DNA of 64,000 bases, from NCBI GenBank assembly GCA_022823235.1, contig JAJDXO010000022.1, positions 61,955-125,954 of the forward strand. The letters run 5' to 3'. Numbering within the stretch: position 1 is the first letter of the stretch; every line of letters begins with the position of its first letter. The position numbers were made by a program, and so were the translations under genes. Positions 9,724-48,686 of the stretch are shown in pieces. The notes beneath the pieces were generated by a model. The model had not been told where the DNA came from, did no database searches, and saw only the letters and a list, made by a program, of their open reading frames with translations. Source of the DNA: Rhodospirillales bacterium. GTDB taxonomy: Bacteria; Pseudomonadota; Alphaproteobacteria; Rhodospirillales; UBA2165.

Positions 9724-11256
9724 ATGAACAACTCGGACCGCCCGAACCTGTTGCTCATCACCTCGGACCAGCAACGGGGGGACTGTTACGGGTTTGCCGG
9801 CCGCCGGGTGTCGACCCCGCATTTGGACGCATTCCGCCGCCAAAGCACATGGCTGAAAAACGCCATTACCCCCAATGTGGTCTGCCAGCCCGCCAGGGCT
9901 TCCATCCTGACGGGTCAACTTCCCAGGACACATGGGGTTCACGACAACGGCATCGACCTCGACGCGGCCACCGGCGAAAAAGGCTTTGCCGGGAGCCTGG
10001 GCCGCGCTGGATACGACACGGCATTTTTCGGCAAGGCGCACTTCGCCAGCTTTTTGACCTTCGAGCCGACCGGCACGCCTGAATGTCTGGAATCTTCCGC
10101 CAACTATGGGGAAGACTGGTATGGGCCGTATATGGGCTTTGAACATGTGGAACTGGTGCTCGTCGGCCACAATCTATTTCCGCCGGAGACGCCGCCGAAG
10201 GGACAACACTATGAGCGCTGGTTCCACGCGGACGGCAAGGGGGCGGAAAAAATCCGTCTGTATGCGGAAAATGCGCGCGACACCAAGGGCGCGGCGCAAA
10301 CGCTTCATTCCCGGCTGCCGACGGCCTGGCACAATTCCAATTGGGTCGCGGACCGGTCCATCGGCTGGCTGGAACAAAGGCGGGACAAGCCGTTCGCCGC
10401 CTGGATCAGTTTCCCGGATCCGCACCACCCCTTCGACTGTCCGGAACCCTGGTCCTACCTGCACCGGCCGGAGGACGTGGACCTGCCGGAGCACCGCACC
10501 CGGGACTTCGAACGCCGGCCATGGTGGCATCGGGCGGTCCTGGAGGGCAAACCGACCGGCAGCGAAACCCATGCGGCCATCCGGACCGGGTACAGCCGCA
10601 TTCAGCCTCAGACCGATGACCAGTTGCGGGAAATTATCGCCAATACCTACGGCATGCTGTCGCTCATCGACCACAATGTGGGCCGCATCCTGAACAGGCT
10701 CGACGAACTGGGGATCGCGGAAAACACCGTCGTCATCTATACGTCCGACCACGGAGACTGGCTGGGCGACCACGGCCTCATCCTGAAGGGTCCGATGCAC
10801 TATGAGGGGCTGCTGCGGGTCGGCATGATCGCCCGAGGACCGGGCATCCGGAAAAACGCCACCGTGGAAGCCCCGGCGTCGACCCTGGATATCGCTTCGA
10901 CATTCGCCGACTATGCGGGCGCGGGACTTCGGCTGAGCCAACACGGAACTTCCATGCGCGGATTGCTGGAGGGGACGGACGGCAGCCGCGATTTCGCCTA
11001 CAATGAATGGGATCTCCATTCCAACCGGACAGGCGTAAATCTGGACCTCCGAACGGTCAGGACCGAGGGTGAGAAACTCACGGTGGACCTGCATTCCGGC
11101 GCCGGCGAAATGTACGACCTCGGGAACGATCCGGATGAAATGGAAAACCTGTACGACGACCCGGCGCACAAAGGCATGAGAGAAACGCTCACCGACATGA
11201 TCGACAGCCGGCCCGACGACGCGCTGGGACGGCGGGAACCGGTCGGAATGGCGTAG
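9724..11256 (+). CDS. formylglycine-type sulfatase (arylsulfatase family), with no obvious signal peptide
   Basis: Start at MNNSDRPNLLLITSDQQRGD. The CxPxR active-site motif is present (VVCQPARASILTG), along with the downstream motifs GKAHF and YTSDHGD. Confidence 0.85.
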   Translation: MNNSDRPNLLLITSDQQRGDCYGFAGRRVSTPHLDAFRRQSTWLKNAITPNVVCQPARASILTGQLPRTHGVHDNGIDLDAATGEKGFAGSLGRAGYDTAFFGKAHFASFLTFEPTGTPECLESSANYGEDWYGPYMGFEHVELVLVGHNLFPPETPPKGQHYERWFHADGKGAEKIRLYAENARDTKGAAQTLHSRLPTAWHNSNWVADRSIGWLEQRRDKPFAAWISFPDPHHPFDCPEPWSYLHRPEDVDLPEHRTRDFERRPWWHRAVLEGKPTGSETHAAIRTGYSRIQPQTDDQLREIIANTYGMLSLIDHNVGRILNRLDELGIAENTVVIYTSDHGDWLGDHGLILKGPMHYEGLLRVGMIARGPGIRKNATVEAPASTLDIASTFADYAGAGLRLSQHGTSMRGLLEGTDGSRDFAYNEWDLHSNRTGVNLDLRTVRTEGEKLTVDLHSGAGEMYDLGNDPDEMENLYDDPAHKGMRETLTDMIDSRPDDALGRREPVGMA

Positions 11257-11384
11257 GGCGATTTTCATGCTCTCCGGTGCGGCGGCCGGCGGGACCGCTT
11301 GCGGGACGCCGGGCGGCGTGCTAGGTCCGGGGAAACGTCCGGAAAGCGCCGCCGACCGGCACGCCGCCTTAACCGAGGAGACCG

Positions 11385-28132: not shown

Positions 28133-28257
28133 TTCAGCTACTACCTCTCTGCTTCAGTGGTTATCAAATAAACTAGCTCTGTCATTTTCCTGTTTTGGAA
28201 GGCATTCACTTGCCCCAAAACCAAGGGCCAAGCGGGTGCTTCCTCCGTTTCTTCGAA

Positions 28258-34365: not shown

Positions 34366-35033
34366 GGCGGATCAATTAGACCGGCCGTCTCATTAAATCA
34401 ACAAATTTCTGAATATCCCGAGAGAAATCGGCGATCACGTGAAACTGGCAACGTCGGACTGACTTGCTGTCGGGAACCTAGACCGCGCGGGGGCCGTCGC
34501 GGACGAATATTCCTTACTGCAATTTTGTTGGTTCCATCGAGGAGATTGTGCTCACGTTGATTGTCCATGCTTGTCAACCATGGTCGGTGGGGGCCGGCGG
34601 TCGGCTGTACGGAACCCGATCGCACGTATCGATGACTCGAAATATTTGATCTACGGTGAAAGTTATTGGCCGGAGAAGGTTTGGCTGGCGAGAGCGCGCA
34701 GACCCGGACACCGGAACACACCCGCGCCCCATGGATTGGTGGCGGGAAACGGTCGAGAAAGAGTGGTGGCGGGTGCCGTCTGATGCGAACCCGTCTCCGG
34801 TGGATTTCCCTGATTTAAGTGGGACTTGGCGGGACGGAACGGCGGTTTTTCGAACGTCGTTGCCGAAGTGCCGCCAAAATGCGGGCTCCGGGTTGTGGGA
34901 GATCGCTTGAAATTTAATCACCCGGGTACGGCTGCCCTAATCAACGATTGATGGCCGAATTTGGCAGCCGCCCCGGGGCAGCATCGCAGCCACCGGCCGA
35001 TCACTGGCGGAGCCGATGAGGCGCCCTAAATGT

Positions 35034-35047
35034 AATAGTATACTATT
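35034..35047. promoter_or_regulatory. perfect 14-bp palindrome AATAGTATACTATT upstream of the permease-SPFH operon
   Basis: Self-complementary on inspection. It shares the core TATACTAT with the box in the znuA/pit intergenic region and lies 34 nt upstream of a sigma70-like -35 hexamer. Confidence 0.4.
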
Positions 35048-35213: not shown

Positions 35214-37550
35214 ATGAATCAACTGATTCTTTTCCTCGATTTCCTGTGGAATTCGTTTCTACTGTTGGGACCGATGCTGTTGCTCGGCCTTTTCCTGGCC
35301 GGGTTGATCCATGTTTTCATCTCGCGGGATGCCGTCTTGCGGTGGCTGCGCCGGGACAGTCTCAAATCCGTCTCCTCCAGCGCGGCGATCGGCGTGCCGA
35401 TGCCGCTTTGCAGTTGTTCCGTGGTTCCGGTGGTGGCGGAAATGCGGCGCAAGGGGGCGTCGCGCTCGGCATGCATGTCGTTCCTGATCACGGCGCCCGA
35501 GACCGGTGCCGATTCGATCCTGGTCACCAACGCCTTTTTCGGGCCGGTGGCTGCCGTGGTCCGGCCGGTCATCAGTTTCATCACCGGCGTGATGGCCGGG
35601 ATCTTCTGCATCGGGATGATCCGGGACGGCGATGCGGTCGAACCCGAGCCCGTCGCCGACGGTCACGGCCACGATCATCACGGCCACGATCATCACGATC
35701 ACGATCATGGCCATGACCACAGCCACAAAACGCTGATACCGGGCGACGACGACTGCTACATCAGCCCGGCCACCCTCAGGGCGTTTTTCGTCACATGGCT
35801 CAGCCGCCTCAACCAGGGCATCGGCCAGGCGCGGTCCATGACGTGGATCAAGCCGGATTTCTACCGCGAGTTTCTCTCCATTCCCGAACCCGCGGCGGCG
35901 CCGGAGGACGATGACGGACGGGACCTCAGCGGCCTCTCCTTCACCACCGTCTGCAAGCACATCCTGCGCTACGGCTTCGTCGAGGTGGCCGACGACATCC
36001 TGTTCGCCCTGCTGGTCGGCGTGATCCTGGGCGGGGTGATCTTCCTCGCCATTCCCGACAACCTCATGGCCCACGAGTACGCCCGCTGGCTGGCCTATCC
36101 CGTCATGGTGCTGGTGGGGGTTCCGCTCTACATCTGCGCCTCGGCGAGTACGCCGATCGCCGCGGCTCTCGTCGCCAAGGGATTCAGCCCGGGGGCGGCG
36201 CTCGTGTTCCTGATGACGGGGCCCGCAACCAATACCGGGACGATCGCGATCATCGCCAGCCAGTTCGGCGCGCGATTCGCTTCGGTCTATGTCGGCTCGG
36301 TCATCGTCGTGACGGTGGCTCTCGGCATCGCCGTCGATCTCCTGATGCTCGCCTTCGGCCTGTCGCTCGCGGTCAATCTCGACGCGTCGGACTCGCCGGC
36401 GCTGGCGGCGATCCAGTGGACCGGCGCGCTCGGCCTCTTCGCGCTCATGTTCTGGCGCTTCCGCGCGGGGGCGCTGAAGAGCGGCTACCAGGACCTGCTC
36501 ATGAACCTCCGGCCGCTATCGGGGCCGACGAAGGGATGGTGGGCGCGCATGACCGGCGATGCGCCGCTGAAGGGTTTGCTGCGCCCCCTTACGCCCGCCG
36601 GGGCGACCGTCTGGCTGTTCGTCGCCGCCGCGTTTCTATTGAGCGGCTTCACGGTCGTACGGCCGGGCGAGGTTGGCTACGGGCGCCTGTTCGGCGCGGT
36701 GGCATGGCGGGACCTGCCGCCGGGCCTTCACTATCTTGCGCCCTGGCCGTTCGCGCGGGCGGACAAATGGCCGGTCCGGGAGGTGAAGTCCGTGACCAGC
36801 GGCACGACGGGCGAGTATCTCACCGGCGACATCAACCTGATGTCGATGTCGCTGAACGTGCAGTACCGGGTCAGCGACCCCTACGTCTATCACTACCGGG
36901 TGGCGAACCCGGAGCAGGCCATCGGCAACAATATCCGCAAGGAGTTGCGCAAGTTCGTCGCGGGGCGCACGCTGGACAACCTGCTGAACGTCGAACGCGC
37001 GCTGCTTCAGAATCACATCGAGGAGGTATTCGAGAATCGCCTCCCGGGCGGGGACAGCGCGCTGCTCGACGCCATCGATCTGGTGAAGGTGAACCTGCTC
37101 TCCGTAAGTCCCGTCGGCGGCGCGATGGGCGCGTTCCGGGAGGTTTCGAGCTCCCAGGACGACAGGGAGCGCATCATCGTCAACGCGCAGCGCCTTACGG
37201 TGTCGCTGATCCCCCGCGCGCACGGCAATGCGGAGTACGAAGTCCAGCAGGCCAAAGGCGAAGCGGCGCGGCGCGTCATCACCTCCGCGGCCGAAAGCGA
37301 CGCCATCCGCATGGTCGCCGGCGCCGTCCGGGAATCGCCGGAAGTCCTTCACAACATGCTGTGGCGCGAAAAGCTGGAAACGTCGCTCTCGGGCCGCAGC
37401 AAGATCATCGTCCCGAATCAGGACACGCTGAACAGGGTAGCGCTGTGGAAGAGGTCGCTCGGCGCCGCCGCCGGACCGCAACCCGGCCATTCCGCCCATT
37501 CGGGCGGCGACAAGCACGCGGCCGGAGCCGCCGGAGGCAGCCATGACTAG
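35214..37550 (+). CDS. fusion protein: PF03773-type CxC permease (putative thiophilic-metal transporter) with a poly-His/Asp loop, plus a C-terminal membrane-anchored SPFH/band-7 (HflK-like) domain
   Basis: The N-terminal half has the family motif GVPMPLCSCSVVP..FLITAPETGADS and a second permease half (VGVPLYICASASTPIAAAL..LMTGPATNT). The loop reads GHGHDHHGHDHHDHDHGHDHSH. After an extra TM (ATVWLFVAAAFLLSGFTVV) comes an SPFH domain (VRPGEVGYGRLFG..PGLHYLAPWPF..NVQYRVSDPYVY). It is one uninterrupted 778-codon frame. Confidence 0.8.
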   Translation: MNQLILFLDFLWNSFLLLGPMLLLGLFLAGLIHVFISRDAVLRWLRRDSLKSVSSSAAIGVPMPLCSCSVVPVVAEMRRKGASRSACMSFLITAPETGADSILVTNAFFGPVAAVVRPVISFITGVMAGIFCIGMIRDGDAVEPEPVADGHGHDHHGHDHHDHDHGHDHSHKTLIPGDDDCYISPATLRAFFVTWLSRLNQGIGQARSMTWIKPDFYREFLSIPEPAAAPEDDDGRDLSGLSFTTVCKHILRYGFVEVADDILFALLVGVILGGVIFLAIPDNLMAHEYARWLAYPVMVLVGVPLYICASASTPIAAALVAKGFSPGAALVFLMTGPATNTGTIAIIASQFGARFASVYVGSVIVVTVALGIAVDLLMLAFGLSLAVNLDASDSPALAAIQWTGALGLFALMFWRFRAGALKSGYQDLLMNLRPLSGPTKGWWARMTGDAPLKGLLRPLTPAGATVWLFVAAAFLLSGFTVVRPGEVGYGRLFGAVAWRDLPPGLHYLAPWPFARADKWPVREVKSVTSGTTGEYLTGDINLMSMSLNVQYRVSDPYVYHYRVANPEQAIGNNIRKELRKFVAGRTLDNLLNVERALLQNHIEEVFENRLPGGDSALLDAIDLVKVNLLSVSPVGGAMGAFREVSSSQDDRERIIVNAQRLTVSLIPRAHGNAEYEVQQAKGEAARRVITSAAESDAIRMVAGAVRESPEVLHNMLWREKLETSLSGRSKIIVPNQDTLNRVALWKRSLGAAAGPQPGHSAHSGGDKHAAGAAGGSHD

Positions 37551-38460
37551 ACGCAGGACTATATGGACCACGCTCGCGGTCGTATTCGCGGCCGTCGTCG
37601 CGTGGGACGTCCACTACGTGATCGATGAGTCCGAACAGGGCGTCCTGACCAATTTCGGCAAAATCGTGCCGCCGGTGAAGCAACCCGGGCTGCACTTCAA
37701 GCTGCCGACGCCCATCTCGGTCGTCTACAAGGTGGACCGGCGGGTGCGGCCGCTGATGAACCTGAAGCAGGAGCTGATCACCGAGGACCAGAAGAACGTT
37801 CTGGTGGACGGCTACCTGCTGTGGCGCATCTCGGATCCCATCCGCTACGTCGAGGCAATCCGCACCGAAGCCAACGCGGTGAAGCGGCTGGGCGATCTGT
37901 ACAGGGCGAGCGTCGGCATCGTGGTCAGCAACAAGTCGAGGGACGCCTTCGTAAGCCTCGGGCTCCAGCACCAGGACATCACCAAGGCGTCCGGCGAAAT
38001 CCTCGATCAGATCAAACCCGTCGCGGCGGAGGATTACGGGATCGAGGTCGTCAGGGCGGGTCTGGTCGAATACACCCTGCCCGCGGCGAACCGCCCCAGT
38101 GTAATCCAGCGGATGATCTCCGAACGCGCCCGTATCGCCGCCCGCTACCGCAGCGAGGGCGAGGAGCGGGCGATAGGCATCGAGGCGTTCGCCATCAACG
38201 AGCACGAAAAGATCATGGCGACGGCCCACGCCGAAGCCACCGCCATCCTGGGCAAGGCGGAAGCCGATGCGCTGGAGACGCTGGCCGCCGCGTACCGCGA
38301 CGACCCGGAGTTCTACAAGTTCATCCGGGCGCTCGACAGCTACGACACGATCATCGACAAGAACACCACGCTGATGCTGCCGGCCGACAACGAGCTGTTC
38401 AAGTATCTGGACGGCAAGGAGATTCCGAAGCCGCCGGCGCCGACGCAGGCGCAGGAATAG
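37543..38460 (+). CDS. SPFH/band-7 domain protein, HflC-like
   Basis: N-terminal TM followed by IDESEQGVLTNFGKIV..PGLHFKLP..LLWRISDPIRYV and a C-terminal coiled-coil region. It overlaps the upstream gene by 8 nt. Confidence 0.85.
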   Translation: MTRRRTIWTTLAVVFAAVVAWDVHYVIDESEQGVLTNFGKIVPPVKQPGLHFKLPTPISVVYKVDRRVRPLMNLKQELITEDQKNVLVDGYLLWRISDPIRYVEAIRTEANAVKRLGDLYRASVGIVVSNKSRDAFVSLGLQHQDITKASGEILDQIKPVAAEDYGIEVVRAGLVEYTLPAANRPSVIQRMISERARIAARYRSEGEERAIGIEAFAINEHEKIMATAHAEATAILGKAEADALETLAAAYRDDPEFYKFIRALDSYDTIIDKNTTLMLPADNELFKYLDGKEIPKPPAPTQAQE

Positions 38461-38470
38461 GGAGCGAGCC

Positions 38471-39934
38471 ATGGCGGACGCTCCCGAAGCGCCGGCGCCC
38501 AGCACGCGCATCATCCACGCGGTTTTCGACTATATGCGCGACCGCTCGACGGTTCTGATCGCCGCGCTCGCGGCGGTCGTCGTGCTGACGTTCCTGGCGG
38601 ACGGCGTTTACGTGGTAAAGAAGGAAGAGCAAGCGGTGCTGACGCGCTTCGGCAAGGTGGTCGATCCGAAAATCCTGCCCGGCATCCACTACGCTTTTCC
38701 GTATGTCGAACGGGCCCATGTGCGCAAGGTCACGCGCATCACGCGGCGCGACGTGGCTACCCGCGACGGGACGGGCAAGGTCTCGTTCTCAATTCTCTCC
38801 GGCGATGTAAACCTGTTCGAAGCGGACGTGGCGCTGCAATACAGGATCGGAAACCTGAAGAACTTCCTTTACGCCACCGCTGATCCGGAGGCCGTTCTGA
38901 CGCTCCTGGTGCGCGAACGCCTGATCGAGATCATGGGAAAGCACTTCATCGATCTCATTTTCACCACCAACCGGGAGATCATCCAGACGCTCCTGTTCGA
39001 GGACACGTCCGCCTATCTGAAGGACCACGATATCGGCATCGAATTGCTGGCGCTCAACATCGTGGATGTGCGTCCCATCGAGGAAACCGTCGCCGCGTTC
39101 AGGGACGTGAGCGACGCGATCGCCGAAGGCATTCAATCCGTCAGCGACGCCAACCGCCGGATGGAAAAACTTCTGGCCCGCAGCCGGGGCCAGGCGGAGG
39201 CGGTCGTCATGAACGCCAAGGCAAGGGCGCGCGAACGCCGGCTTCAAGCCGAGAGCAGCGCCAAGATCTTCGCCGACCTGCTGGTGGTCTACCGGAGCCA
39301 GCCGTCCTCGGTCACGGTGACGCGGTATTGGCAGCGCATGCGAAACATTTTCCGTGAAGCCACGCTGTCGACGGTCAATCCGGGCGACGCCTCTTCCATA
39401 GACGTCAACATGGTCGAAGGCTTCGTGCCCGGCGTGGGCCGCGCACCCGTCGCCGCGTCCACGGCCGCGCCGGGGACGCAGAACCTCGCCGGCGCGAGAC
39501 GCACCCTGTCCACGGTCAGCGAAGGGAGCGGCCACGGCCTCGAGAACGTCGATTCCGACCGCTTCCTGATGGACGGGCGCTTCCATGCAACCCGCGGAGA
39601 GCGCCACCACCTGAGCACGGCCAAGCTGCGTTCCCTGATTTTCGACGATCTGTCCATCTTCAGTCACCGCCACGTCGCGCCGACCGGCGTCGCAACGGCC
39701 GCGGAGCGGAACGAGAAACCGCTGGTCGAGCGGACGACCGTGATCCCGGACGAAGGGGACGAGAGCGGGCCGGCGCAACCCGGGCATGTGAAGCGGGCCA
39801 AGGAGAAATCGGAAAAGGCGACGAAAACGCAATCGGCGAAAGGGACGAAGGCGAAGCACGAGAAACCGGGGAAGGCGGGGAACGAGGAGAGCGCGGCGGC
39901 GAAACCGGGTATGACGGATGCGAGCGCCAAGTAG
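38471..39934 (+). CDS. SPFH/band-7 domain protein, HflK-like, with a long C-terminal extension ending in a Lys-rich tail
   Basis: TM followed by VVKKEEQAVLTRFGKVV..PGIHYAFPYVE..ALQYRIGNLKNFLY. The C-terminal tail reads KRAKEKSEKATKTQSAKGTKAKHEKPGKAGNEE. Confidence 0.85.
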   Translation: MADAPEAPAPSTRIIHAVFDYMRDRSTVLIAALAAVVVLTFLADGVYVVKKEEQAVLTRFGKVVDPKILPGIHYAFPYVERAHVRKVTRITRRDVATRDGTGKVSFSILSGDVNLFEADVALQYRIGNLKNFLYATADPEAVLTLLVRERLIEIMGKHFIDLIFTTNREIIQTLLFEDTSAYLKDHDIGIELLALNIVDVRPIEETVAAFRDVSDAIAEGIQSVSDANRRMEKLLARSRGQAEAVVMNAKARARERRLQAESSAKIFADLLVVYRSQPSSVTVTRYWQRMRNIFREATLSTVNPGDASSIDVNMVEGFVPGVGRAPVAASTAAPGTQNLAGARRTLSTVSEGSGHGLENVDSDRFLMDGRFHATRGERHHLSTAKLRSLIFDDLSIFSHRHVAPTGVATAAERNEKPLVERTTVIPDEGDESGPAQPGHVKRAKEKSEKATKTQSAKGTKAKHEKPGKAGNEESAAAKPGMTDASAK

Positions 39935-41105
39935 TTCCATCTCGACGTTCGCTCTCGTCTTTTTCGTATGCTCCGCGAGTTGGGCCCAAGCGAATTCGAA
40001 CCAGCCCGGCGTCACCGCGGACGCGGTCGTTTTCGGCCAGATTGCCTGTTTCTCGGGCTTTTGCGGGCAATCTGGCCTGCAATATCGCGGGGGTATCCTG
40101 GCCGCCTTCCACGAGCGCAATCGGGAGGGCGGCGTACGGGGACGGACGCTCGGTCTCCGATCGGTGGACGATGGCTACGAACCGGAGACCGCCGCGGCCA
40201 ACGCGGAGAAGTTGGTCGCTTCCAACGAGGTTTTCGCCGTTATCGGCGGCATCGGCACGCCGACGGCGAGACGCATTGCGCCCATACTTCGCCAGGCGAA
40301 AACGCCTTTCGTGGGCATTCTGACGGGCGCCGATTTCCTGCGCGACGCCGACCGGTTCCCGAACGTGGTGAATCTGCGGACCGGGTACGAGGAGGAAACG
40401 CGGCAACTGGTTTTCTACATGGCCGGCGAATTGGGAGCGAAACGCTTCGGCATCATCTACCAGGAAGATTCGTTCGGACGTTCCGTGCTCAGAAGCTACC
40501 GGACCGCGCTCGCGGAACGCGGCCTGCCGGTACTCGCCAAGTCGACATATTCGCGGCACACCCACGGCATTCATGGAGCCGTGTTCAACATGGAACGGGC
40601 GGACCTGGACGCGGTGATGCTGGCCACGACCACGGGTGTCGCCGGCGACGCCATCAATGCGGCGCGGGTGCTCGGCCAAAAGTGGGTCGCGGCGCTCTTG
40701 TCCACCGTCAGCGTGAAGCGTCTGCGGGCCGCGGTCGAGAGCACCGCGGAGCCCGCCCTCATATCCAGGGTTCTCCCCGACGTCGAGGATGAAAGCATCG
40801 CATTGGTCCGGCGATTCCGTTCCGCACTTGCCGAGTACAGGAAGACCGGGTCGGAGGCCGCCCGCCTCGTGCCGGACAAGTTCTGTCTCGAAGGCTACAT
40901 TCTGGGACGTTTCGTCGTCGAGGTGCTCGCACGCCTTCCGAACGAACCGACCCGGAAAGAGTTTCTGACGGCCGCGCTGAGCGCGAATCCCGTCTTTATC
41001 GACGATTGGAGAATTTCCTTCGAGCCCGGCGGCAACGCCGGATCGACATATGTAAGGCTCATCAATTCCGGGGGCAGACCCCCTGAAAAGGTAATCGGAC
41101 AGTGA
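39918..41105 (+). CDS. periplasmic binding protein, type I fold (LivK/receptor-ligand-binding family), with no cognate ABC genes in the operon
   Basis: It has a signal peptide (FALVFFVCSASWAQA) and the sequence VVFGQIACFSG..GVRGRTL..DDGYEP..FAVIGGIGTPT. It overlaps the upstream gene by 17 nt. Confidence 0.75.
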   Translation: MRAPSSSISTFALVFFVCSASWAQANSNQPGVTADAVVFGQIACFSGFCGQSGLQYRGGILAAFHERNREGGVRGRTLGLRSVDDGYEPETAAANAEKLVASNEVFAVIGGIGTPTARRIAPILRQAKTPFVGILTGADFLRDADRFPNVVNLRTGYEEETRQLVFYMAGELGAKRFGIIYQEDSFGRSVLRSYRTALAERGLPVLAKSTYSRHTHGIHGAVFNMERADLDAVMLATTTGVAGDAINAARVLGQKWVAALLSTVSVKRLRAAVESTAEPALISRVLPDVEDESIALVRRFRSALAEYRKTGSEAARLVPDKFCLEGYILGRFVVEVLARLPNEPTRKEFLTAALSANPVFIDDWRISFEPGGNAGSTYVRLINSGGRPPEKVIGQ

Positions 41106-41593
41106 AGAAGATCGATGAATTCGAACGGGAAGAAACCAGCGAGGAATGGCTGCGGGAGGGCTACAAGGTCGTGTCCATGCGCCGGAACATCATGTTCCGG
41201 ATGCTCCTCGAATCGACACGACTGCTGTTGTTCGGCAATGCCGGCGGCACCGCGCTCATCATCGGCTTCATGAGCACTGCCGTGACCGGCGGGGACGAAG
41301 GGGTGTTTCACTGGTTCGCACTGGCGACCGTGCTGGTGTTCGGCGTGGGCATTCTGACCTCCGCGCTGACCATGTTCCTGGTCACCATCGTCTCCGTCAG
41401 GGAGGCGCACGGAAGCGAGACCGCCCTCAAGCGCTTCACCGACGGCGAGGGCGACCGGTCCGAGGTCATGTTCAATGTCGAGGGCCGCACCTGGCGCACC
41501 GCCGACTGGGCCACCCTGACCGGCATCGTCAGCGCCGCCTGCTTCATCCTCGGCGGCATGGCCGGGATTGCCTTGCTGGTGGTCTTCTTCTGA
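41102..41593 (+). CDS. small integral membrane protein (163 aa, 3-4 TM), unknown family
   Basis: It overlaps the upstream stop by 4 nt (ATGA-type coupling). Hydrophobic segments were seen in the translation. Confidence 0.6.
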   Translation: MKKIDEFEREETSEEWLREGYKVVSMRRNIMFRMLLESTRLLLFGNAGGTALIIGFMSTAVTGGDEGVFHWFALATVLVFGVGILTSALTMFLVTIVSVREAHGSETALKRFTDGEGDRSEVMFNVEGRTWRTADWATLTGIVSAACFILGGMAGIALLVVFF

Positions 41594-41624: not shown

Positions 41625-42428
41625 TTAGCCGTCCTCGCGGGATGGTCCCCGAACCGGGATCAGCAGGCTGGCGGCGAAGATTCCGCTCGCCACCAGCACG
41701 ATCGCCGGCCCCGCGGGAATGTCCCAGAGGAGCGAGACGAACAGACCGGCGGCGACCGAAGCGATTCCGATCGCCGTCGACGCCACCGCCATCTGCTCGG
41801 GCGTCGCCGCCATGCGGCGCGCCGCGGCGGCGGGGACGATGACCAGCGCCACGACCAGCAGCATGCCGACGATCTTCATTCCGACCGCGATAACCCCGGC
41901 GAGCAGGAACAGGAACAAGAAACGAATCCGCTCTACCGGCACGCCCTCCGCCGCCGCGAGATCCTGGTTGAGGGTAACGGCGAGAAGGTTGCTCCATTGC
42001 CAGGCAAGCGCCGCCGTAACCACGGCCGCGGTGCCGAAGATCAGCCAGAGATCGACGACACCGACCGACAGAATATCGCCGAACAGATAACCGATCAGAT
42101 CGACTCGCACCCGTTCCATGAACGCGACGACGACCAGCCCGGCCGCGAACACCGCATGCGCCAGAACCCCGAGCAGGGCGTCGACGGAAATGACCCGCTG
42201 GCGCTCCAGCAGGAGGAGACAGACCGCGAGCAGGAGGCATATGGCGAAGACCGCGACGATCGGCTCGATCTGGAGCAGGAATCCGAGCGCGACCCCGAGC
42301 AGCACCGCATGCGCGAGCGCGGTGCCGAAATACGCCATGCGCCGCCACACCACGAAACACCCGACCGGTCCGGCGGCGAGCGCCGCCCCGATCCCGCCGC
42401 CAAGGGCGCGCAGGACGAAATCCTCCAT
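41625..42428 (-). CDS. znuB: zinc ABC transporter permease ZnuB
   Basis: Start at MEDFVLRALGGGIGAALAAGPVGCFVVWRRMAYFG, overlapping the znuC stop (TGATG). The membrane protein is ZnuB/TroCD-family-like. Confidence 0.85.
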   Translation of the reverse strand: MEDFVLRALGGGIGAALAAGPVGCFVVWRRMAYFGTALAHAVLLGVALGFLLQIEPIVAVFAICLLLAVCLLLLERQRVISVDALLGVLAHAVFAAGLVVVAFMERVRVDLIGYLFGDILSVGVVDLWLIFGTAAVVTAALAWQWSNLLAVTLNQDLAAAEGVPVERIRFLFLFLLAGVIAVGMKIVGMLLVVALVIVPAAAARRMAATPEQMAVASTAIGIASVAAGLFVSLLWDIPAGPAIVLVASGIFAASLLIPVRGPSREDG

Positions 42429-43243
42429 CACCGATGCCGGCCGGCCGGCCGTGCCTGCTCCGGTGGGTCCGCCTCGATCGAGAGCGGCTCGCCCAGCGCG
42501 TCGTGACGATGGTCGTGGGCATGCTGATACACGGCGAACGTCTCCGACAAATGCTGTCCGAACAGGGAGATGAACTCGGGGTGCCGCAGAACCGCCTGCG
42601 GCCGCCCGGTGCAGCACACATGCCGGTTGAGGCAGACCACGGTGTCGGTCGCGGCCATCACCAGGTGAAGATCGTGCGAGACCAGGAGAACCCCGAAGCC
42701 GCGCCGGTCACGGATATCGGCGATGAGCCGGTAGAGGTCGCTTTGGCTGGTGACGTCCACCCCCGCCAGCGGCTCGTCGAGCACCAGGAGTTGGGGCTCG
42801 CGCAGCAACGCCCGCGCCAGCAGCACGCGCTGCATCTCCCCGCCGGAAATCTCGGCCAGGGGATGGCCCAGGATGGGATCGCCGCCGACCTCGTCGAGCA
42901 CGCGTTGGAGCGCTTTGCGGGGGGCGGGTGAGCCGAGCGTCATGAAACGTTCCACCGTGATCGGCATAACGGGATCGCGCTGCATGTGCTGCGGCACGTA
43001 GCCGACGCGCAGGCCGGGGCTCTGCAGCACCTCACCGCTATCGGGTTCCAGGATGCCCAGGATCACGCGGATGAGCGTCGACTTGCCGGCGCCGTTCAGC
43101 CCAATCAGGGTGACGATTTCCCCGGCGCGGACAGCGATATCCACGGCGTCGAGCACGCTCCGCCGGCCGAAGCGCAGGCTAACGCCGCGCGCCTCGACGA
43201 GGGGGGCGGCCTCGGACGGATCGCGGGAGGGTGCACCTGTCAT
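42428..43243 (-). CDS. znuC: zinc ABC transporter ATP-binding protein ZnuC
   Basis: Motifs GLNGAGKSTL, ISGGEMQRVLLARAL and LVLDEP, plus a His-rich C-terminus (YQHAHDHRHD). The start is uncertain: ATG at 43243 or 43264, or TTG at 43294. Confidence 0.85.
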   Translation of the reverse strand: MTGAPSRDPSEAAPLVEARGVSLRFGRRSVLDAVDIAVRAGEIVTLIGLNGAGKSTLIRVILGILEPDSGEVLQSPGLRVGYVPQHMQRDPVMPITVERFMTLGSPAPRKALQRVLDEVGGDPILGHPLAEISGGEMQRVLLARALLREPQLLVLDEPLAGVDVTSQSDLYRLIADIRDRRGFGVLLVSHDLHLVMAATDTVVCLNRHVCCTGRPQAVLRHPEFISLFGQHLSETFAVYQHAHDHRHDALGEPLSIEADPPEQARPAGRHR

Positions 43244-43306
43244 TCGGGAACCTGCCGTGACCATGCCCTTTGCGGCGGGACGTGCGCGCGGCAATCGGGG
43301 CGCCGG

Positions 43307-44260
43307 TCAATTCCTGCCGAGACAGCCTGCCATCGAGTCGCTCAGGCCGCGCATGATCTCCATCCAGGCGTCCGGACCGGGCTTCGTGTCGGCGCCGATC
43401 GGGTCGAGTACCGCGGTCCCCACGTCGCTGCCCTCGATCACCGTGCGGACCAGATCGGGCTCGAACTGCGGTTCGGTGAACACGCAGCGGATCTTGTGCT
43501 CGGCGAGCGCGGCGCGCAGCTCGACGAGCCGCTTGGCGCTCGGCGCCCGCGCCGGGTCGACCGCGACCGCGCCCTTGCTGTTCAATCCGTAGGCGCGCTC
43601 GAAATACTGGTAGGCGTCGTGAAACACCACGAAGGCGTGTCCGCGTACCGGCGTCAGGCGGGCCTGAAGGGAGGCGTGCAGGTCGACAATCCGCTTGCGC
43701 GTCGCCGCGGCATTGGCGCGCCAGATCGCGGAGCGGGCGGGGTCGAGAAATGTCAGCGCCGCCGCGACCTCATCGACGATCCGGCCGGCATTGGCGGGAT
43801 CGAGCCAGATATGCATGTTGAACTCGCCATGCTCATGACCGTGGTCTTCGTGCTCGTCGACATGGGGCTCCTCGTCATGGTGGTCCTCTTCCCATATCCC
43901 CCCTTCGCGGTTGCGCAGCAGGCGTATTCCGGGCACCTCGTGCAGGGTCACGACCCTGGACCGGGCGCCGAGATTCTCGACCGCACGATGGAGGAAGGTC
44001 TCCATCGCCTCGCCGACCCACACGATCAGATCGGCCTCGGTGAGAGCCCGGGCATCGGACGGGCGCATCTGATAGGTGTGGGGCGATGCGCTGCCCTTGA
44101 GCAGAAGCCGGGGTTTTCCGGCGTCGCCCATCACCCCGGCGACGAGGGAATGGATCGGCTTGAGGCTGACCACGACATCAGGGGTCTGCGCGCTCAGCCC
44201 ATGCGGTGCCAGCGGCACGCACAGCGCAGCGAAAATCAGTGTCTTGCGGATGAAGTCCAC
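43307..44260 (-). CDS. znuA: periplasmic zinc-binding protein ZnuA
   Basis: The GTG start at 44260 has a perfect AGGAGG 6 nt upstream, followed by a signal peptide. The acidic/His-rich loop EEDHHDEEPHVDEHEDHGHEHGE is typical of ZnuA. Cluster-9 binding-protein motifs are present (SPHTYQMRPSD, HDAYQYFE). Confidence 0.9.
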   Translation of the reverse strand: MDFIRKTLIFAALCVPLAPHGLSAQTPDVVVSLKPIHSLVAGVMGDAGKPRLLLKGSASPHTYQMRPSDARALTEADLIVWVGEAMETFLHRAVENLGARSRVVTLHEVPGIRLLRNREGGIWEEDHHDEEPHVDEHEDHGHEHGEFNMHIWLDPANAGRIVDEVAAALTFLDPARSAIWRANAAATRKRIVDLHASLQARLTPVRGHAFVVFHDAYQYFERAYGLNSKGAVAVDPARAPSAKRLVELRAALAEHKIRCVFTEPQFEPDLVRTVIEGSDVGTAVLDPIGADTKPGPDAWMEIMRGLSDSMAGCLGRN

Positions 44261-44333
44261 GTCCGTCCTCCTTGGATGTCCGGCGCCGCGCGTTCCAACT
44301 ATCGGATGTCGGAACCAGCGGCGCCATGATTTC

Positions 44334-44355
44334 AATATAACGTTATACTATAATT
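44334..44355. promoter_or_regulatory. candidate Zur operator: overlapping AT-rich palindromes TATAACGTTATA and TTATAcTATAA
   Basis: Located in the znuA/pit divergent intergenic region. It resembles GTTATA-N-TATAAC Fur-family (Zur) boxes and overlaps -10-like hexamers on both strands (TATAAT on plus). zur is encoded 2.3 kb away. Confidence 0.55.
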
Positions 44356-44499
44356 GTCGTTCTCAATACCAATTGGTTTTGCCGGTTCCCGCGCGCGCAG
44401 GACGGCCTGGAAGCCTTACCGCGTTCCCCGGTGCGTCACGATTCGATTCGTAGGCAGGGCGCCGACGAGTGGTTACGGGAACGCTCCAACTAACGGCCA

Positions 44500-45843
44500 T
44501 TGGCTGGCCGCTTGACACTCCCGAACGATCTCTGCTCCATTACTTTCACACTTGGGAATTCACTTTCCTTGGCAGCGAATCTCACCATTATTCTCGTCGC
44601 GGCGATCTGCGCCGGTCTGTACATGGCCTGGGCGATCGGCGCGAACGACGTTGCGAATTCGATGGGCACGTCGGTCGGTTCGGGAGCCATCACCGTCGGC
44701 GTCGCCATCGTGATCGCCGGCGTGTTCGAATTCCTCGGGGCGTTTCTGGCCGGCGGCGAGGTCACCTCGACGATCCGCAAGGGCATCATCGACGCCGAGG
44801 CCCTGGAGCACGATCCCGACCTGCTCGTCATCGGCATGCTGTCGGCTCTCCTGGCCGCCGCCGTCTGGCTCACTATCGCTTCCAGATTCGGCTGGCCCGT
44901 ATCGACCACGCATTCGATCGTCGGAGCCATCATCGGTTTTGCCGTCGTCGCGATCGGCTTCGACGCCGTCCACTGGTGGGACGTGGCCACGATCGCCGCA
45001 AGCTGGGTGGTCACCCCGGTTCTCGCCGGCGTGATCGCGTTTCTCCTGGTGTTGAGCGTGCAGTGGCTGATCTTCAACAGGGACGATCCGGCCGCGAATG
45101 CGCGCCGCTACGTGCCCGTCTACATATTCGCCGCGGTGTTCGTAACCGCTTCGGTGACCTTCGTGAAGGGGTTGAAGCATGTCGGCATGGATCTGAGCAT
45201 GCCGATGGCGCTCCTGTATTCGGTGGCCGCGGCCGCCGCGGTGGCCGTCGCCAGCCGTCTGGTCATCAACAGGTTGAGCTTCGAGAGCCTCGAATCCTCC
45301 ACCGGGGGGCAATCGCGCTTCACCGATGTCGAGAAGGTGTTCGGCATCCTCATGATCGTCACCGCGTCGGGCATGGCCTTCGCCCACGGTTCGAACGACG
45401 TCGCCAATGCGATCGGACCCGTCGCCGCGATCGTCGGCGTGGTGACCACGGGCGGGGTCGCGGCCAAGTCGGCGGTGCCGGTGTGGATCCTGCTGATCGG
45501 CGCGGCGGGTATCGTGATCGGCCTGGCGACCTTCGGCTACCGGGTCATGGCGACGATCGGGAGGAAGATCACCGAGCTTACGCCGAGCCGCGGATTCGCC
45601 GCCGAATTCGCCGCCGCGTCGACGGTCGTCGTGGCAAGCGGCACCGGGCTTCCCGTCTCGACCACCCAGACGCTGGTGGGCGCCGTGATGGGAGTCGGCC
45701 TCGCCCGGGGCATGGGCGCCCTCGACTTCGGCGTGGTCCGCACCATCTTGGTGTCCTGGATCGTCACGCTTCCCGTGGGCGCGGTGCTGGCGGTGGCGAT
45801 ATACTACCTCTTGTCGGCGGTATTCGTTCAAGGTGCCGGATGA
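44500..45843 (+). CDS. inorganic phosphate transporter, PiT (PHO4/PitA) family
   Basis: Duplicated PiT signature: first copy WAIGANDVANSMGTSVGSG, second copy FAHGSNDVANAIGP. The start is uncertain: TTG at 44500 or TTG at 44569. Confidence 0.85.
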   Translation: MAGRLTLPNDLCSITFTLGNSLSLAANLTIILVAAICAGLYMAWAIGANDVANSMGTSVGSGAITVGVAIVIAGVFEFLGAFLAGGEVTSTIRKGIIDAEALEHDPDLLVIGMLSALLAAAVWLTIASRFGWPVSTTHSIVGAIIGFAVVAIGFDAVHWWDVATIAASWVVTPVLAGVIAFLLVLSVQWLIFNRDDPAANARRYVPVYIFAAVFVTASVTFVKGLKHVGMDLSMPMALLYSVAAAAAVAVASRLVINRLSFESLESSTGGQSRFTDVEKVFGILMIVTASGMAFAHGSNDVANAIGPVAAIVGVVTTGGVAAKSAVPVWILLIGAAGIVIGLATFGYRVMATIGRKITELTPSRGFAAEFAAASTVVVASGTGLPVSTTQTLVGAVMGVGLARGMGALDFGVVRTILVSWIVTLPVGAVLAVAIYYLLSAVFVQGAG

Positions 45844-46484
45844 TGAGAATCGCCGAAGAGTTTCTGCTCCTGCTGCGCGACGAGGACGGGGCGCTGTCGC
45901 GGGCCCCGGAATGGCTGGCCCGCTACGCCCTGGGCGCCTCGGTGCTGATGGATCTGGCGCTGGAGAATCGCATCGACACCGACGCCCGGCGGCTGTTCCT
46001 GATCGACTCGTCCCCGGTGGGGGATGCGCTGCTCGATCCCATGCTCTCCGAGATCGCGCAAACGGGCCGGGAGCACGACGCCCTCTACTGGGTGGAGCAC
46101 GCGACCCACCATGCCGACGAAATCCGGGAAACGGCCCTGGCGCGGCTGGTCGACAGCGGCGTCCTGCGATTGAGCGACGACCGCATCCTGCGGATATTCG
46201 GAGCGCGGCATTACCCGCTTGCCGACGAAGAAGCGGAGCGCGATCTGATTCGGCGGATTCGGGAGACGCTGCTGAGCGACACGATCCCGAACCCGAGAGA
46301 TATCGTGATCGTCACCCTGGCGGACGGCTGCGGGCTCATCGGTCATATCCTGTCCGCGGAAGAACTGTCCGGCGCCGCGGCGCGCATCGAACTGGTGCGG
46401 AATCTGGAGTTGATCGGCCGGGCGTTCCTCAACGCCCTGGATGTCGCCGTTCAACCCGCCGCCGGGAAGCTCGATCACGACTGA
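45840..46484 (+). CDS. GPP34/GOLPH3-like family protein
   Basis: This is the C-terminal part of the 671-aa track ORF. The ATG at 45840 overlaps the PiT stop (ATGA). MRIAEEFLLLLRDEDG..YALGASVLMDLALENRI..ARLVDSGVL matches the bacterial GPP34 pattern as I recall it. Confidence 0.6.
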   Translation: MMRIAEEFLLLLRDEDGALSRAPEWLARYALGASVLMDLALENRIDTDARRLFLIDSSPVGDALLDPMLSEIAQTGREHDALYWVEHATHHADEIRETALARLVDSGVLRLSDDRILRIFGARHYPLADEEAERDLIRRIRETLLSDTIPNPRDIVIVTLADGCGLIGHILSAEELSGAAARIELVRNLELIGRAFLNALDVAVQPAAGKLDHD

Positions 46485-46620
46485 CCCCGCCGCCCGGGCG
46501 GGAGGACCCGTCGGGCCGCCAGAGCGGTATCCGGCCATCTTGCCCGCGGGAGCGAGGTGGTTTAGTTTCAGAGTTCCCTGGGCGTGCCGCCGAACCGGTC
46601 GACACCGGAGAACCAATGTC

Positions 46621-47115
46621 ATGAACAGCCTTCAGGAACGGAATGGCGGGTTCCTCCCCGATCAGCACGATCACGGAGATTGCGTGGCGGTCGCGCTGGA
46701 GGACGCGATTGCGGTTTGCGGCGAACGCGGGGTGCGGCTCACGCCGGTACGCCGGCGTGTGCTGGAAATCATCTGGCAGGGCCACCGTCCGCTCGGCGCC
46801 TACGCCATCCTGGAAGTGCTTTCGAACGAGGGGTATTCCCCGGCGCCACCCACGGTCTATCGCGCGCTCGAGTTCCTGCTCACCCAGGGGCTGGTGCACC
46901 GGCTGTCGTCGCTGAACGCGTTCGTCGGCTGCGCCAGTCCCGGCCGTCCGCATGCGGGGCAGTTCCTGCTGTGCACCGCCTGCGGCTCGGCGGCCGAACT
47001 CAACGATCCCGACATCGAACGCGCGATCGAGCGCGGCGCGGCGGCCGAGGGCTTCGTCTGCCGGAACCATACCGTGGAGATCAGCGGGCTCTGCCCGCAT
47101 TGCCGCGAGGCCTGA
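46621..47115 (+). CDS. zur: Fur-family zinc uptake regulator Zur
   Basis: Start at MNSLQERNGG. Winged helix LTPVRRRVLEIIWQGHRPLGAYAILEVL. Two CxxC pairs are present (LLCTACG and GLCPHCRE). Confidence 0.85.
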   Translation: MNSLQERNGGFLPDQHDHGDCVAVALEDAIAVCGERGVRLTPVRRRVLEIIWQGHRPLGAYAILEVLSNEGYSPAPPTVYRALEFLLTQGLVHRLSSLNAFVGCASPGRPHAGQFLLCTACGSAAELNDPDIERAIERGAAAEGFVCRNHTVEISGLCPHCREA

Positions 47116-47211
47116 CTGACGGACCACTTGGGATCGATCCGCCGGCCGGATTTACCGGCCGCCCGGCGTCTCGATACGGGGACTAAGGTCGTCGGTTCGC
47201 ATGGAAAAAAG

Positions 47212-47288
47212 TGGTGGGCCTGGCAGGACTCGAACCTACAACCAGACCGTTATGAGCGGCCGGCTCTAACCAATTGAGCTACAGGCCC
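47212..47288 (-). tRNA. tRNA with anticodon CAT (elongator Met, or Ile2 if lysidinylated)
   Basis: The minus strand reads GGGCCTGTAGCTCAATTGGTTAGAGCCGGCCGCTCATAACGGTCTGGTTGTAGGTTCGAGTCCTGCCAGGCCCACCA. Folding by eye gives a 7-bp acceptor stem, a CT-CAT-AA anticodon loop, a GGTTCGAGTCC T-arm and an encoded CCA. Confidence 0.9.
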
Positions 47289-47381
47289 CACCGTGATGGC
47301 GGAGCATATACCAAGCGCGCCCGGCCAACAAAGCGCAAGGCCGCTGGCGCCGCCGGTGCGGGCGCGCATCACGCCCAGCCG

Positions 47382-48686
47382 TCACCTGATCATCGTCTCC
47401 GGCAGGATCAGCGCGATCGGGGGAAAGAGGATAAGCAGCGCCGTGCACACCAGCATCGCGCCCCAGAAGGGCATCACCCCGCGGAATATCTCCCCCATGG
47501 GCACGCCCTCGGCGATCCCCTTCACGACGAAGACGTTCAGGCCCAGGGGCGGGCTGATCAAACTCATCTCCAGCACGACCACGAGGAGCACCCCGAACCA
47601 GATGGGATCGAAGCCCATATCGACGATCATCGGGAAAACGATGGGGATGGTCAGCACCATGATGGCGAACCCTTCGAGGAAGGTGCCGAGCACGATGTAG
47701 CCGAGGATGATCATGATCAGCACGGTGGTCGGCGCGAGGCTCAGTCCTTCCACCATCTGGGCGAGATCGGAAGGCAGCTGGGTCACGGCGAGGAACGGGT
47801 TGAAGATGAAGGCGCCGATCAGGATCAGGTAGACCATGGCGAAGGTCTTGATGGTCTCCAGCACGCAGAACTTGATCATTTCCGGATTGGCACGGCCGCG
47901 CACCACCATCAGCATGAAGGTGAAGAACGCGCCGACCGCCGCCGCTTCCACCGGCGTAAATACGCCAAGGTAGATTCCGCCGAGCACGACGATGACGATG
48001 ACCATCAGCGCCGACGCGCTGGCGACCGAAGACATCCGTTCCCGCCAGCTCTGGCGGTCGGCCCGCGGCCCGATGGCCGGATTGAAGCGGGTGAGGATGT
48101 AGATGGTCAGCATGAAAAGACCGGTGAGCAGAATGCCCGGCAGCACGCCCGCCAAAAACAATTGCCCGATGGACTCCTCCGTCAGCAGGGCATAGATGAT
48201 GAACCCGGTGCTCGGCGGGATGAGGATTCCGAGGGTGCCGCCGGCGGCGACGCAGCCGGTCGCCAGCCTCGGATGATACTCATAGCGCTTCATTTCGGGG
48301 AGCGAGACCCGTCCCATGGTGACGGCGGAGGCGAGGCTGGAGCCCGACACCGCCGCAAAGCCCGCGCAGCCGACGATGGTCGCGGACGCCAGACCGCCCG
48401 GCCAATGGCCGACCAGCGAGCGGGCCATGTCGTACAGCTCGCGGCTCATGCCGGACACCATGGCGAAATTTCCCATCAGTACGAACAGCGCGATGATACT
48501 GAGATCGTAATTGTAGGAAATCTCGAAGGGGATGGTGCCGAGGAGCGCCAAGGTGGCATCGACGCCGTTAAGCCACAAATAGCCGAATGTGCCGGCGATC
48601 CCCAGCGCGATGCCGATGGGAAACCGCATGAAGATGAGGACGAACAAGCCCCCGAGGGTATAGAGGCCGATGGCGGTGGCGCTCAC
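47382..48686 (-). CDS. dctM: TRAP transporter large permease (DctM family)
   Basis: A 434-aa polytopic protein with DctM-like motifs (GGTLGILIPPSTGFIIYA). It starts 1 nt downstream of the dctQ stop. Confidence 0.9.
   Translation of the reverse strand: MSATAIGLYTLGGLFVLIFMRFPIGIALGIAGTFGYLWLNGVDATLALLGTIPFEISYNYDLSIIALFVLMGNFAMVSGMSRELYDMARSLVGHWPGGLASATIVGCAGFAAVSGSSLASAVTMGRVSLPEMKRYEYHPRLATGCVAAGGTLGILIPPSTGFIIYALLTEESIGQLFLAGVLPGILLTGLFMLTIYILTRFNPAIGPRADRQSWRERMSSVASASALMVIVIVVLGGIYLGVFTPVEAAAVGAFFTFMLMVVRGRANPEMIKFCVLETIKTFAMVYLILIGAFIFNPFLAVTQLPSDLAQMVEGLSLAPTTVLIMIILGYIVLGTFLEGFAIMVLTIPIVFPMIVDMGFDPIWFGVLLVVVLEMSLISPPLGLNVFVVKGIAEGVPMGEIFRGVMPFWGAMLVCTALLILFPPIALILPETMIR

Follow-up and report, generated by a model that had tools for sequence, protein, structure and literature searches.

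In a 64-kb stretch of a Rhodospirillales contig (JAJDXO010000022.1, from an uncultured Defluviicoccus-like alphaproteobacterium; below, the window, to which all positions refer), an AT-rich box at 44340–44356 lies between the zinc importer genes znuACB and a divergent gene for a PiT-family phosphate transporter, which is followed by a GPP34-family gene and by zur. Based on comparison with related loci, we favour with reasonable confidence a reading in which the box serves znuACB as Zur operator and PiT-GPP34 forms a separate mobile cassette with its own promoter, probably independent of Zur. The box is assigned to znuACB and not to PiT because its spacing to znuA is constant, its spacing to PiT is variable, and it is absent at other PiT-GPP34 loci. 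The palindromes, the GTG start of znuA, and the PiT, GPP34 and Zur-like genes on which a first-pass annotation of this DNA had built were all found where it had placed them. The features concerned are:

41625–42428, minus strand: znuB, ABC-3 permease (Pfam ABC-3, 8e-67; NCBIfam ZnuB, 268 bits)
42428–43244, minus strand: znuC, ABC ATPase (NCBIfam ZnuC, 301 bits; the open reading frame reaches 43294)
43307–44260, minus strand: znuA, zinc-binding periplasmic protein (Pfam ZnuA, 7.8e-69; NCBIfam ZnuA, 257 bits)
44340–44356, no strand assigned: Zur-type box ACGTTAT-ACT-ATAATTG with core GTTATACTATAAT at 44342–44354, putative znuACB operator
44357–44505, plus strand: spacer of variable length that separates the box from the PiT promoter block; kept in L001, L002 and L003, absent from L081, expanded in L003 and L086
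44512–44540, plus strand: candidate PiT promoter TTGACA (44512–44517)-N17-CTCCAT (44535–44540), a conserved block with a putative promoter role
44569–45843, plus strand: PiT-family (PHO4) transporter, 424 aa, TTG start (Pfam PHO4, 3.1e-118)
45840–46484, plus strand: GPP34-family protein, 214 aa (Pfam GPP34, 6.7e-37)
46520–46620, plus strand: conserved block upstream of zur, candidate zur promoter region
46621–47115, plus strand: zur, putative zinc uptake regulator of the Fur family, 164 aa (Pfam FUR, 1.6e-11)

The Zur-type box upstream of znuA

The sequence at 44331–44360 reads tttcaatataacgttatactataattgtcg and includes both TATAACGTTATA (44336–44347) and GTTATACTATAAT (44342–44354). GC content across 44320–44379 is 0.33, compared with approximately 0.65 in the surroundings. 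With at most one mismatch allowed, GTTATANTATAAC has a single site in the 64 kb, namely GTTATACTATAAT, whereas 0.00 sites are expected from 100 dinucleotide-preserving shuffles; with at most two mismatches there is again one site in the window (0.14 expected). The box matches the 7-3-7 form ATGTTATNNNATAACAT at 10 of 14 positions, and the alignment of relatives shows that its left half is near-perfect and its right half degenerate. The looser proteobacterial Zur rule GTTA-N5-TAAC (PMC4176598) is not exceptional on its own, as five sites with at most one mismatch were found in the window versus 4.06 expected.

Relatives were taken from 80 genomic loci obtained with a GPP34 alignment and from extra contigs retrieved by exact-protein look-up. 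Wherever znuA is divergent from PiT (window, L081, L001, L002, L083, L084, L086/L090), the 12-nt core ATGTTATACTAT is exactly preserved between intergenic flanks that have diverged. The palindrome TATAACGTTATA, which the first-pass annotation had singled out as well, is specific to the window and not kept in relatives; the conserved core is ATGTTATACTAT. The distance from the box to the znuA start is constant at about 80 nt in the window, L081, L001, L002, L083, L084 and L086, whereas the PiT start is 91 nt away from the box in L081, 215 nt away in the window, approximately 370 nt in L003 and approximately 960 nt in L086. In L084 (1615–1655) the znuA box is present as a tandem duplicate, ATAATGTTATACTATAGTC followed by ATAATGTTATACTATCATTG.

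The same class of motif recurs at zinc genes. When approximately 450 kb of loci were scanned for ATGTTAT-N3-ATAACAT, the top ten matches (at least 11/14) included nine that adjoined such genes: the znuA/zur intergenic region of L011, a cluster of a His-rich outer-membrane protein and a ZnuA-like protein in L001, a five-gene operon headed by an SO_0444-family permease gene in L004, L005 and L007, and the upstream region of the same operon in the window (35030–35046). Overall, Zur-like boxes adjoin znuA, zur or the SO_0444 operon at 35030 in the window, at 10033 in L001, and in L004, L005, L007, L011, L015, L085, L086, L090 and L104; those of L011 (ATGTTATAAAATAACAA) and L015 are clear boxes of the alphaproteobacterial type. 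The classification of the 44340 box as Zur-type is thus borne out, both by similar boxes beside zinc genes in the window and its relatives and by conservation of the core upstream of znuA.

A crude position weight matrix, built from six boxes in loci outside the window, ranks the 35030 box first in the 64 kb (17.7 bits) and the 44340 box second (14.1 bits). The margin is narrow: 14.1 bits barely exceeds what shuffled windows reach at best on average (12.5 ± 2.2). A further match, at 28158, is upstream of an unrelated binding-protein gene and was treated as chance. By itself the score of the 44340 box is modest; it is the combination of score, position and conservation that favours a Zur operator over other readings. 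The modest score, the insignificance of the loose GTTA-N5-TAAC rule by itself and the good conservation of the left half-site alone, next to a degenerate right one, would also suit another reading, in which the AT-rich stretch is just a promoter or UP element standing out in a high-GC genome, or is bound by another AT-binding regulator. We consider this highly improbable, given a 12-nt core that is invariant amid diverged flanks and duplicated in tandem in L084, the recurrence of the motif class at znuA, zur and the SO_0444 operon among the best matches, and a Zur-like gene in the immediate neighbourhood.

znuA starts with GTG at 44260, preceded by AGGAGG-N6, and both start codon and Shine-Dalgarno sequence are kept in five relatives. 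The likely start of znuC is ATG 43244 (271 aa), by analogy to a 271-aa gene call in L081, and that of znuB is likely ATG 42428, which overlaps the znuC stop as TGATG (the L081 gene call has 268 aa). All three genes are on the minus strand in one operon. Repressing Zur boxes normally overlap the −10/−35 elements of the core promoter (PMC4176598, PMC6103462). In the simplest model, accordingly, znuACB is under control of the box, and PiT-GPP34 uses its own promoter. In the scheme that we infer for Zur binding, promoter positions and transcript structure, zinc-loaded Zur (46621–47115) would bind the half-site ATGTTAT-ACT-AT when zinc is sufficient and block the znuA promoter, which would overlap or adjoin the box approximately 70–90 nt upstream of the GTG.

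The PiT-GPP34 cassette and zur

The PiT protein matches Pfam PHO4 with 395 bits over the full profile (positions 1–350 of 350). Its start had been placed at 44500 and is here corrected to TTG 44569, based on conservation and on an exact 424-aa protein in the database. This TTG start is kept with a GGGAG-type Shine-Dalgarno sequence in approximately 30 loci, and independent gene callers also give 424 aa; in the window, a GGGAA Shine-Dalgarno-like element follows the candidate promoter block at 44554–44558. The block TTGACA-N17-CTCCAT, about 160 nt downstream of the box in the window, is kept in the window, L081, L001, L002, L086 and L082 and is degenerate in L003 and L083; a strict sigma-70 scan did not pick it up. 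In L082, where GPP34 is 93% identical and the pair is located between UbiD and ferritin genes, the block persists and znuA, zur and a GTTAT-type box are missing. Further, a matrix scan of up to 500 nt upstream of PiT yielded no box in the approximately 24 loci without a divergent znuA, L082 included. The earlier proposal that PiT shares the znuA operator is, accordingly, not upheld: the spacing is variable, the PiT-proximal block persists in L082, and the box is lacking in those 24 or so loci. PiT-GPP34 would instead be transcribed from the proximal block at 44512–44540, most likely independently of Zur. TGTCA-type Pho-box repeats were not found upstream of PiT.

The spacer (44357–44505) comprises a conserved block of approximately 140 nt within DNA rich in insertions and deletions across relatives. 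It contains no open reading frame, and RNAalifold gave no support for a structured leader (covariation term −0.38). An Rfam scan of 43800–47600 (E ≤ 1) matched a tRNA alone and left the PiT leader without a match, and a leader or riboswitch common to all loci was not seen upstream of PiT, where only the Shine-Dalgarno sequence and the start region are shared. In L082 (4655–4700), a perfect 12-nt inverted repeat, CATGTTTTGACG...CGTCAAAACATG, is situated in the gap from the promoter block to the start of PiT; one of its arms recurs 4 kb away (at 590), and the repeat may be a small repeated element. In L083 (6507–7004; GPP34 81% identical), a large internal deletion leaves a PiT of 165 aa, and the TTGACA block is degenerate, whereas box, znuACB, GPP34 and zur are intact. 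This PiT copy may have become a true pseudogene, or it may reflect an error of long-read assembly.

Concerning the type of transporter, the window PiT fails the PitA model NF033774 (85.9 bits in the C-terminal region only, cutoff 800) and is closest to TmPiT of Thermotoga maritima (PDB 6L85; E 5e-87; residues 6–418 against 2–399, i.e., full length). The PDB label of 6L85 is merely ‘Phosphate transporter’; TmPiT is of the SLC20/PiT type and depends on sodium for phosphate transport.

The GPP34-family protein matches the Pfam profile with 127.9 bits (positions 1–193 of 201), and the profile also matches GOLPH3 (5.7e-8) and Vps74. The PiT stop codon overlaps the GPP34 start codon (ATGA, 45840–45843) in essentially all of the 31 loci L001–L031, which implies translational coupling of the two genes. 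The phosphatidylinositol 4-phosphate (PI4P) pocket of human GPP34/GOLPH3 includes W81, R90, R171 and R174. In the HMMER alignment, R174 corresponds to an invariant R96 and R171 to D93; W81 and R90 align neither with W25 nor with any arginine. PiT proteins are 79–92% identical across metagenome-assembled genomes (MAGs) of at least four phyla (with MAGs of Alphaproteobacteria, Paracoccaceae, Nitrospinota, Binatia and Gammaproteobacteria), pointing to recent horizontal transfer of the pair, and many PiT-GPP34 MAGs are apparently sponge-associated, with bin names that match published sponge or coral metagenome sets. More distant GPP34 homologs (52–57% identity) have unrelated neighbours, e.g., RNR, DAP epimerase, ThuA or PIN, and are uninformative with respect to PiT. 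Literature searches returned no report of a PiT-GPP34 pair or of a Zur-regulated PiT. The coupling to PiT suggests that GPP34 acts as an intracellular partner rather than as a host effector.

The Zur-like protein exceeds the Pfam FUR cutoff (44.8 bits, cutoff 23.1). Its best NCBIfam match by far is Zur (8e-31; 107 bits, below the cutoff of 167), followed by PerR (5e-8), and the translation has two CxxC motifs (CTAC, CPHC). The order of the Zur-like gene after GPP34, described before for the window, was also found in L081, L083 and L084. Approximately 100 nt ahead of zur are kept in these four loci and in L001, where the upstream genes are on the opposite strand. Since this block persists in L001, it is very likely that zur has its own promoter, and transcription of zur is probably driven from there. 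The 136-nt gap between GPP34 and zur has no predicted terminator (fold z = −0.26, not significant), so read-through from PiT-GPP34 would be possible. Autoregulation of zur had been suggested earlier; no box was found in the GPP34-zur gap, and this position, therefore, provides no evidence for it.

Downstream of zur the loci differ. A tRNA-Met gene (47212–47288, minus strand) directly follows zur in the window, and the region continues with DctMQP in the window and L081, with an ammonium transporter and a phage-type integrase in L083, and with an EF-hand protein in L084; this is likely a hotspot of rearrangement or integration. In L001 (10368–10489), only the first approximately 40 codons of zur are left, followed by an integrase- or insertion sequence-like open reading frame (10750–11290). 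This remnant is divergent from the cluster in which genes for a His-rich outer-membrane protein and a ZnuA-like protein are joined by one for an ABC-3 protein, and which has its own Zur-like box (at 10033).

A second box and the SO_0444::HflK operon

The first-pass annotation had recognized a single Zur-like box; the window contains a second, better-scoring one, which precedes a five-gene operon:

35030–35046, no strand assigned: Zur-like box ATGTAATAGTATACTAT, 168 nt upstream of the gene for the SO_0444-permease::HflK fusion, stronger than the 44340 box
35214–41593, plus strand: five-gene operon directly upstream of znuBCA
35214–37550, plus strand: SO_0444-family permease fused to HflK, with His-rich loop DGHGHDHHGHDHHDHDHGHDHSH (SO_0444 model 322 bits, cutoff 300)
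approximately 37522–38448, plus strand: HflC-like protein (HflC 156 bits, cutoff 134)
38471–39844, plus strand: HflK-like protein (Pfam/NCBIfam)
39918–41105, plus strand: Peripla_BP_6 binding protein (Pfam/NCBIfam)
41102–41593, plus strand: 163-aa membrane protein without a Pfam or NCBIfam match

This box includes the perfect 14-nt palindrome AATAGTATACTATT, and 11 of its 14 scored positions agree with the 7-3-7 consensus. The operon is preceded by a counterpart of this box in L004, L005, L007, L085, L086 and L090. In L004, L005 and L007, in which PiT-GPP34 precedes the operon, the box follows GPP34 and is not ahead of PiT. Small open reading frames, for instance for zinc-independent ribosomal protein paralogs, were not found between 34366 and 35213.

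A metagenome scan seeded with the SO_0444-family permease showed the five-gene operon to be conserved in more than 20 loci; the loci concerned are L004, L005, L007 and L085–L108. In L087 it is located between znuA and znuCB on one strand, in L104, L006, L008 and L009 it comes after znuA, and in L088 and L089 before znuCB. Conservation within the operon is strikingly uneven: when the window is compared with L002, L003 and L086, the 163-aa membrane protein shows 93–96% identity and the adjacent binding protein only 54–56%. With its Zur-like boxes and, in some genomes, its position between znuA and znuCB, the operon is a candidate for a new component of bacterial zinc homeostasis, whether for import or for export.

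Alternative readings and known systems

Several findings, in addition to the narrow matrix margin, speak against assigning the box to znuACB alone. A convincing znuA promoter was found neither by eye nor by consensus: a scan of 44000–47400 for sigma-70 promoters and terminators found nothing, and hand-read −10/−35 candidates were dropped as they are not conserved in relatives. In L003 (4341–4372), a 7-nt insertion (CATTGTA) splits the core of the box into ATTATAC-CATTGTA-CATAAT; in that MAG, the operator may have lost or changed its function. Moreover, the box contains a perfect TATAAT on the PiT strand (44349–44354), 17 nt downstream of ATGATT, which could be a weak promoter toward PiT that is occluded by Zur. 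Finally, PiT-GPP34 adjoins zinc genes in at least six layouts, far more commonly than expected for an unrelated cassette:

window type: as in the window
tandem: L004, L005, L007
divergent with ZnuA: L006, L009
PiT-GPP34-ZnuA-operon-ZnuCB: L008, L087
convergent: L104 and L025, L028, L029
znuA-PiT-GPP34: L011

This recurrence hints at a common function, which could include co-regulation.

The TATAAT is the starting point for a possible bidirectional operator along the lines of the first-pass annotation, with Zur repressing both znuACB and PiT-GPP34-zur from the one box, PiT being a zinc-phosphate importer induced by zinc starvation, and zur being autoregulated. L002, L001 and L081 retain the element in the form TATAAT or TATATT, the divergent layout of znuACB and PiT-GPP34-zur is kept in the window, L081, L083, L084 and L086/L090, and the lack of a terminator before zur and the recurrence beside zinc genes would fit as well; further, E. 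coli Pit is cited for zinc uptake as neutral metal phosphate (PMC4176598). Nevertheless, such a transcript would have a leader of 215 nt in the window and of approximately 960 nt in L086, rich in insertions and deletions, while a separate promoter-like block beside PiT persists where the box is missing and, within the 500 nt scanned, the box is found upstream of PiT in none of the approximately 24 loci without a divergent znuA. The transporter itself resembles TmPiT and fails the PitA model, and Pit has been described as constitutive in E. coli (PMC4176598) and as under phosphate control in Cupriavidus metallidurans (PMC11112998). In addition, the zur upstream block is retained in L001, and L083 has lost part of PiT with box, znuACB and zur left intact. 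On balance, we regard a bidirectional operator as unlikely.

A weaker form of the original idea keeps the link of PiT-GPP34 to zinc and gives up the shared box. In this case, the pair would be a functional member of a zinc-homeostasis island that also contains Znu and the SO_0444::HflK operon, and it would be driven not via the box but by its own promoter, either constitutive or phosphate-responsive. Adjacency through at least six arrangements, Zur-like boxes at the neighbouring operons and the His-rich loop of the SO_0444-like permease point in this direction. On the other hand, zinc genes are missing from the neighbourhood of many PiT-GPP34 loci, for instance those of a Paracoccaceae group, in which the pair is located between Lon/Bax1-I and inositol monophosphatase, and L082 (UbiD/ferritin). 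The evidence for a zinc link is real but non-independent, as with PiT proteins 79–92% identical across phyla the whole island may have been transferred together, and we hold the link to be doubtful. If it existed, the pair could provide metal-phosphate uptake or phosphate/sodium coupling beside Zur-controlled systems. More specifically, and just as tentatively, PiT-GPP34 might be a mobile accessory module of such islands, with GPP34 as an intracellular gate or sensor of PiT, not a secreted host effector, and with the pair working alongside Znu and the SO_0444::HflK operon. Its persistence next to zinc genes through at least six rearranged layouts would then make sense, and it might, for example, import zinc-phosphate or balance phosphate during zinc uptake. 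The chances of an island membership of this kind appear small, and a znuACB operator next to an independently transcribed cassette remains our preferred reading. Such a standard Zur operator before a zinc ABC importer helps annotation and is unsurprising; the PiT-GPP34 coupling and the SO_0444::HflK operon with its Zur-like box are the results of greater interest.

As in the E. coli znuA/znuCB operator (structure 4MTD) and the znuA boxes of Rhizobium leguminosarum, Agrobacterium and Caulobacter, an AT-rich pseudo-palindrome is located upstream of znuA in the window. Known znuA boxes are of the GTTA-N5-TAAC or ATGTTAT-N3-ATAACAT type and are found in a divergent intergenic region with zur nearby (PMC6103462, PMC4176598, PMC12183173). 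In contrast, znuACB of the window is encoded on one strand, and its divergent partner is the PiT-GPP34 cassette, not znuCB. The window box further differs from known operators in having one strongly conserved half-site, and the cassette separates zur from the predicted operator.

The first two proteins of the five-gene operon pass the SO_0444 and HflC models, respectively, in line with the SO_0444 Cu/Zn efflux family (NCBIfam NF033936) and with HflK/HflC. Differences from these known systems are that the window permease is fused to HflK and carries a His-rich loop, that a Zur-like box precedes the operon, and that the operon is sometimes found between znuA and znuCB.

Some PiT transporters pair with a PhoU-like DUF47 protein, as in orfA-pit of Sinorhizobium and ykaA-pit of Bacillus. 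In these operons, too, the partner is a small soluble protein, presumably a regulator or accessory protein; GPP34, however, has an unrelated fold and is encoded downstream rather than upstream of PiT. TmPiT, the closest structure, has no reported GPP34 partner or zinc context, unlike the window PiT. With PitA, the metal-phosphate:H+ symporter of E. coli and Cupriavidus, the window protein has the PHO4 superfamily in common, but PitA has approximately 500 aa compared with 424 aa. PitA reportedly takes up phosphate complexes of divalent metals, zinc among them (PMC4176598, PMC11112998), in E. coli as neutral metal phosphate (PMC4176598), and it is described as constitutive or phosphate-regulated, not Zur-regulated (PMC4176598, PMC11112998). 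The analogy to PitA drawn in the first-pass annotation is, thus, weak: the window protein fails the PitA model, TmPiT is closest, and in C. metallidurans PitA responds to phosphate and not to zinc (PMC11112998).

GPP34 proteins are reportedly enriched in sponge symbionts, for which a PI4P-binding effector modulating host phagocytosis has been proposed (Ferreira et al. 2025, PMC11706023). The GPP34 of the window is likewise a short, single-domain protein, and the bin names of its homologs are consistent with an enrichment in sponges. In that study, the flanking gene is a cytochrome P450, and its main text mentions neither ‘phosphate transporter’ nor ‘zinc’ (PMC11706023). Here, in contrast, GPP34 is coupled to PiT in 31 loci, and this coupling within one large clade points to a cellular role that is different from the proposed symbiosis effector and that is testable.

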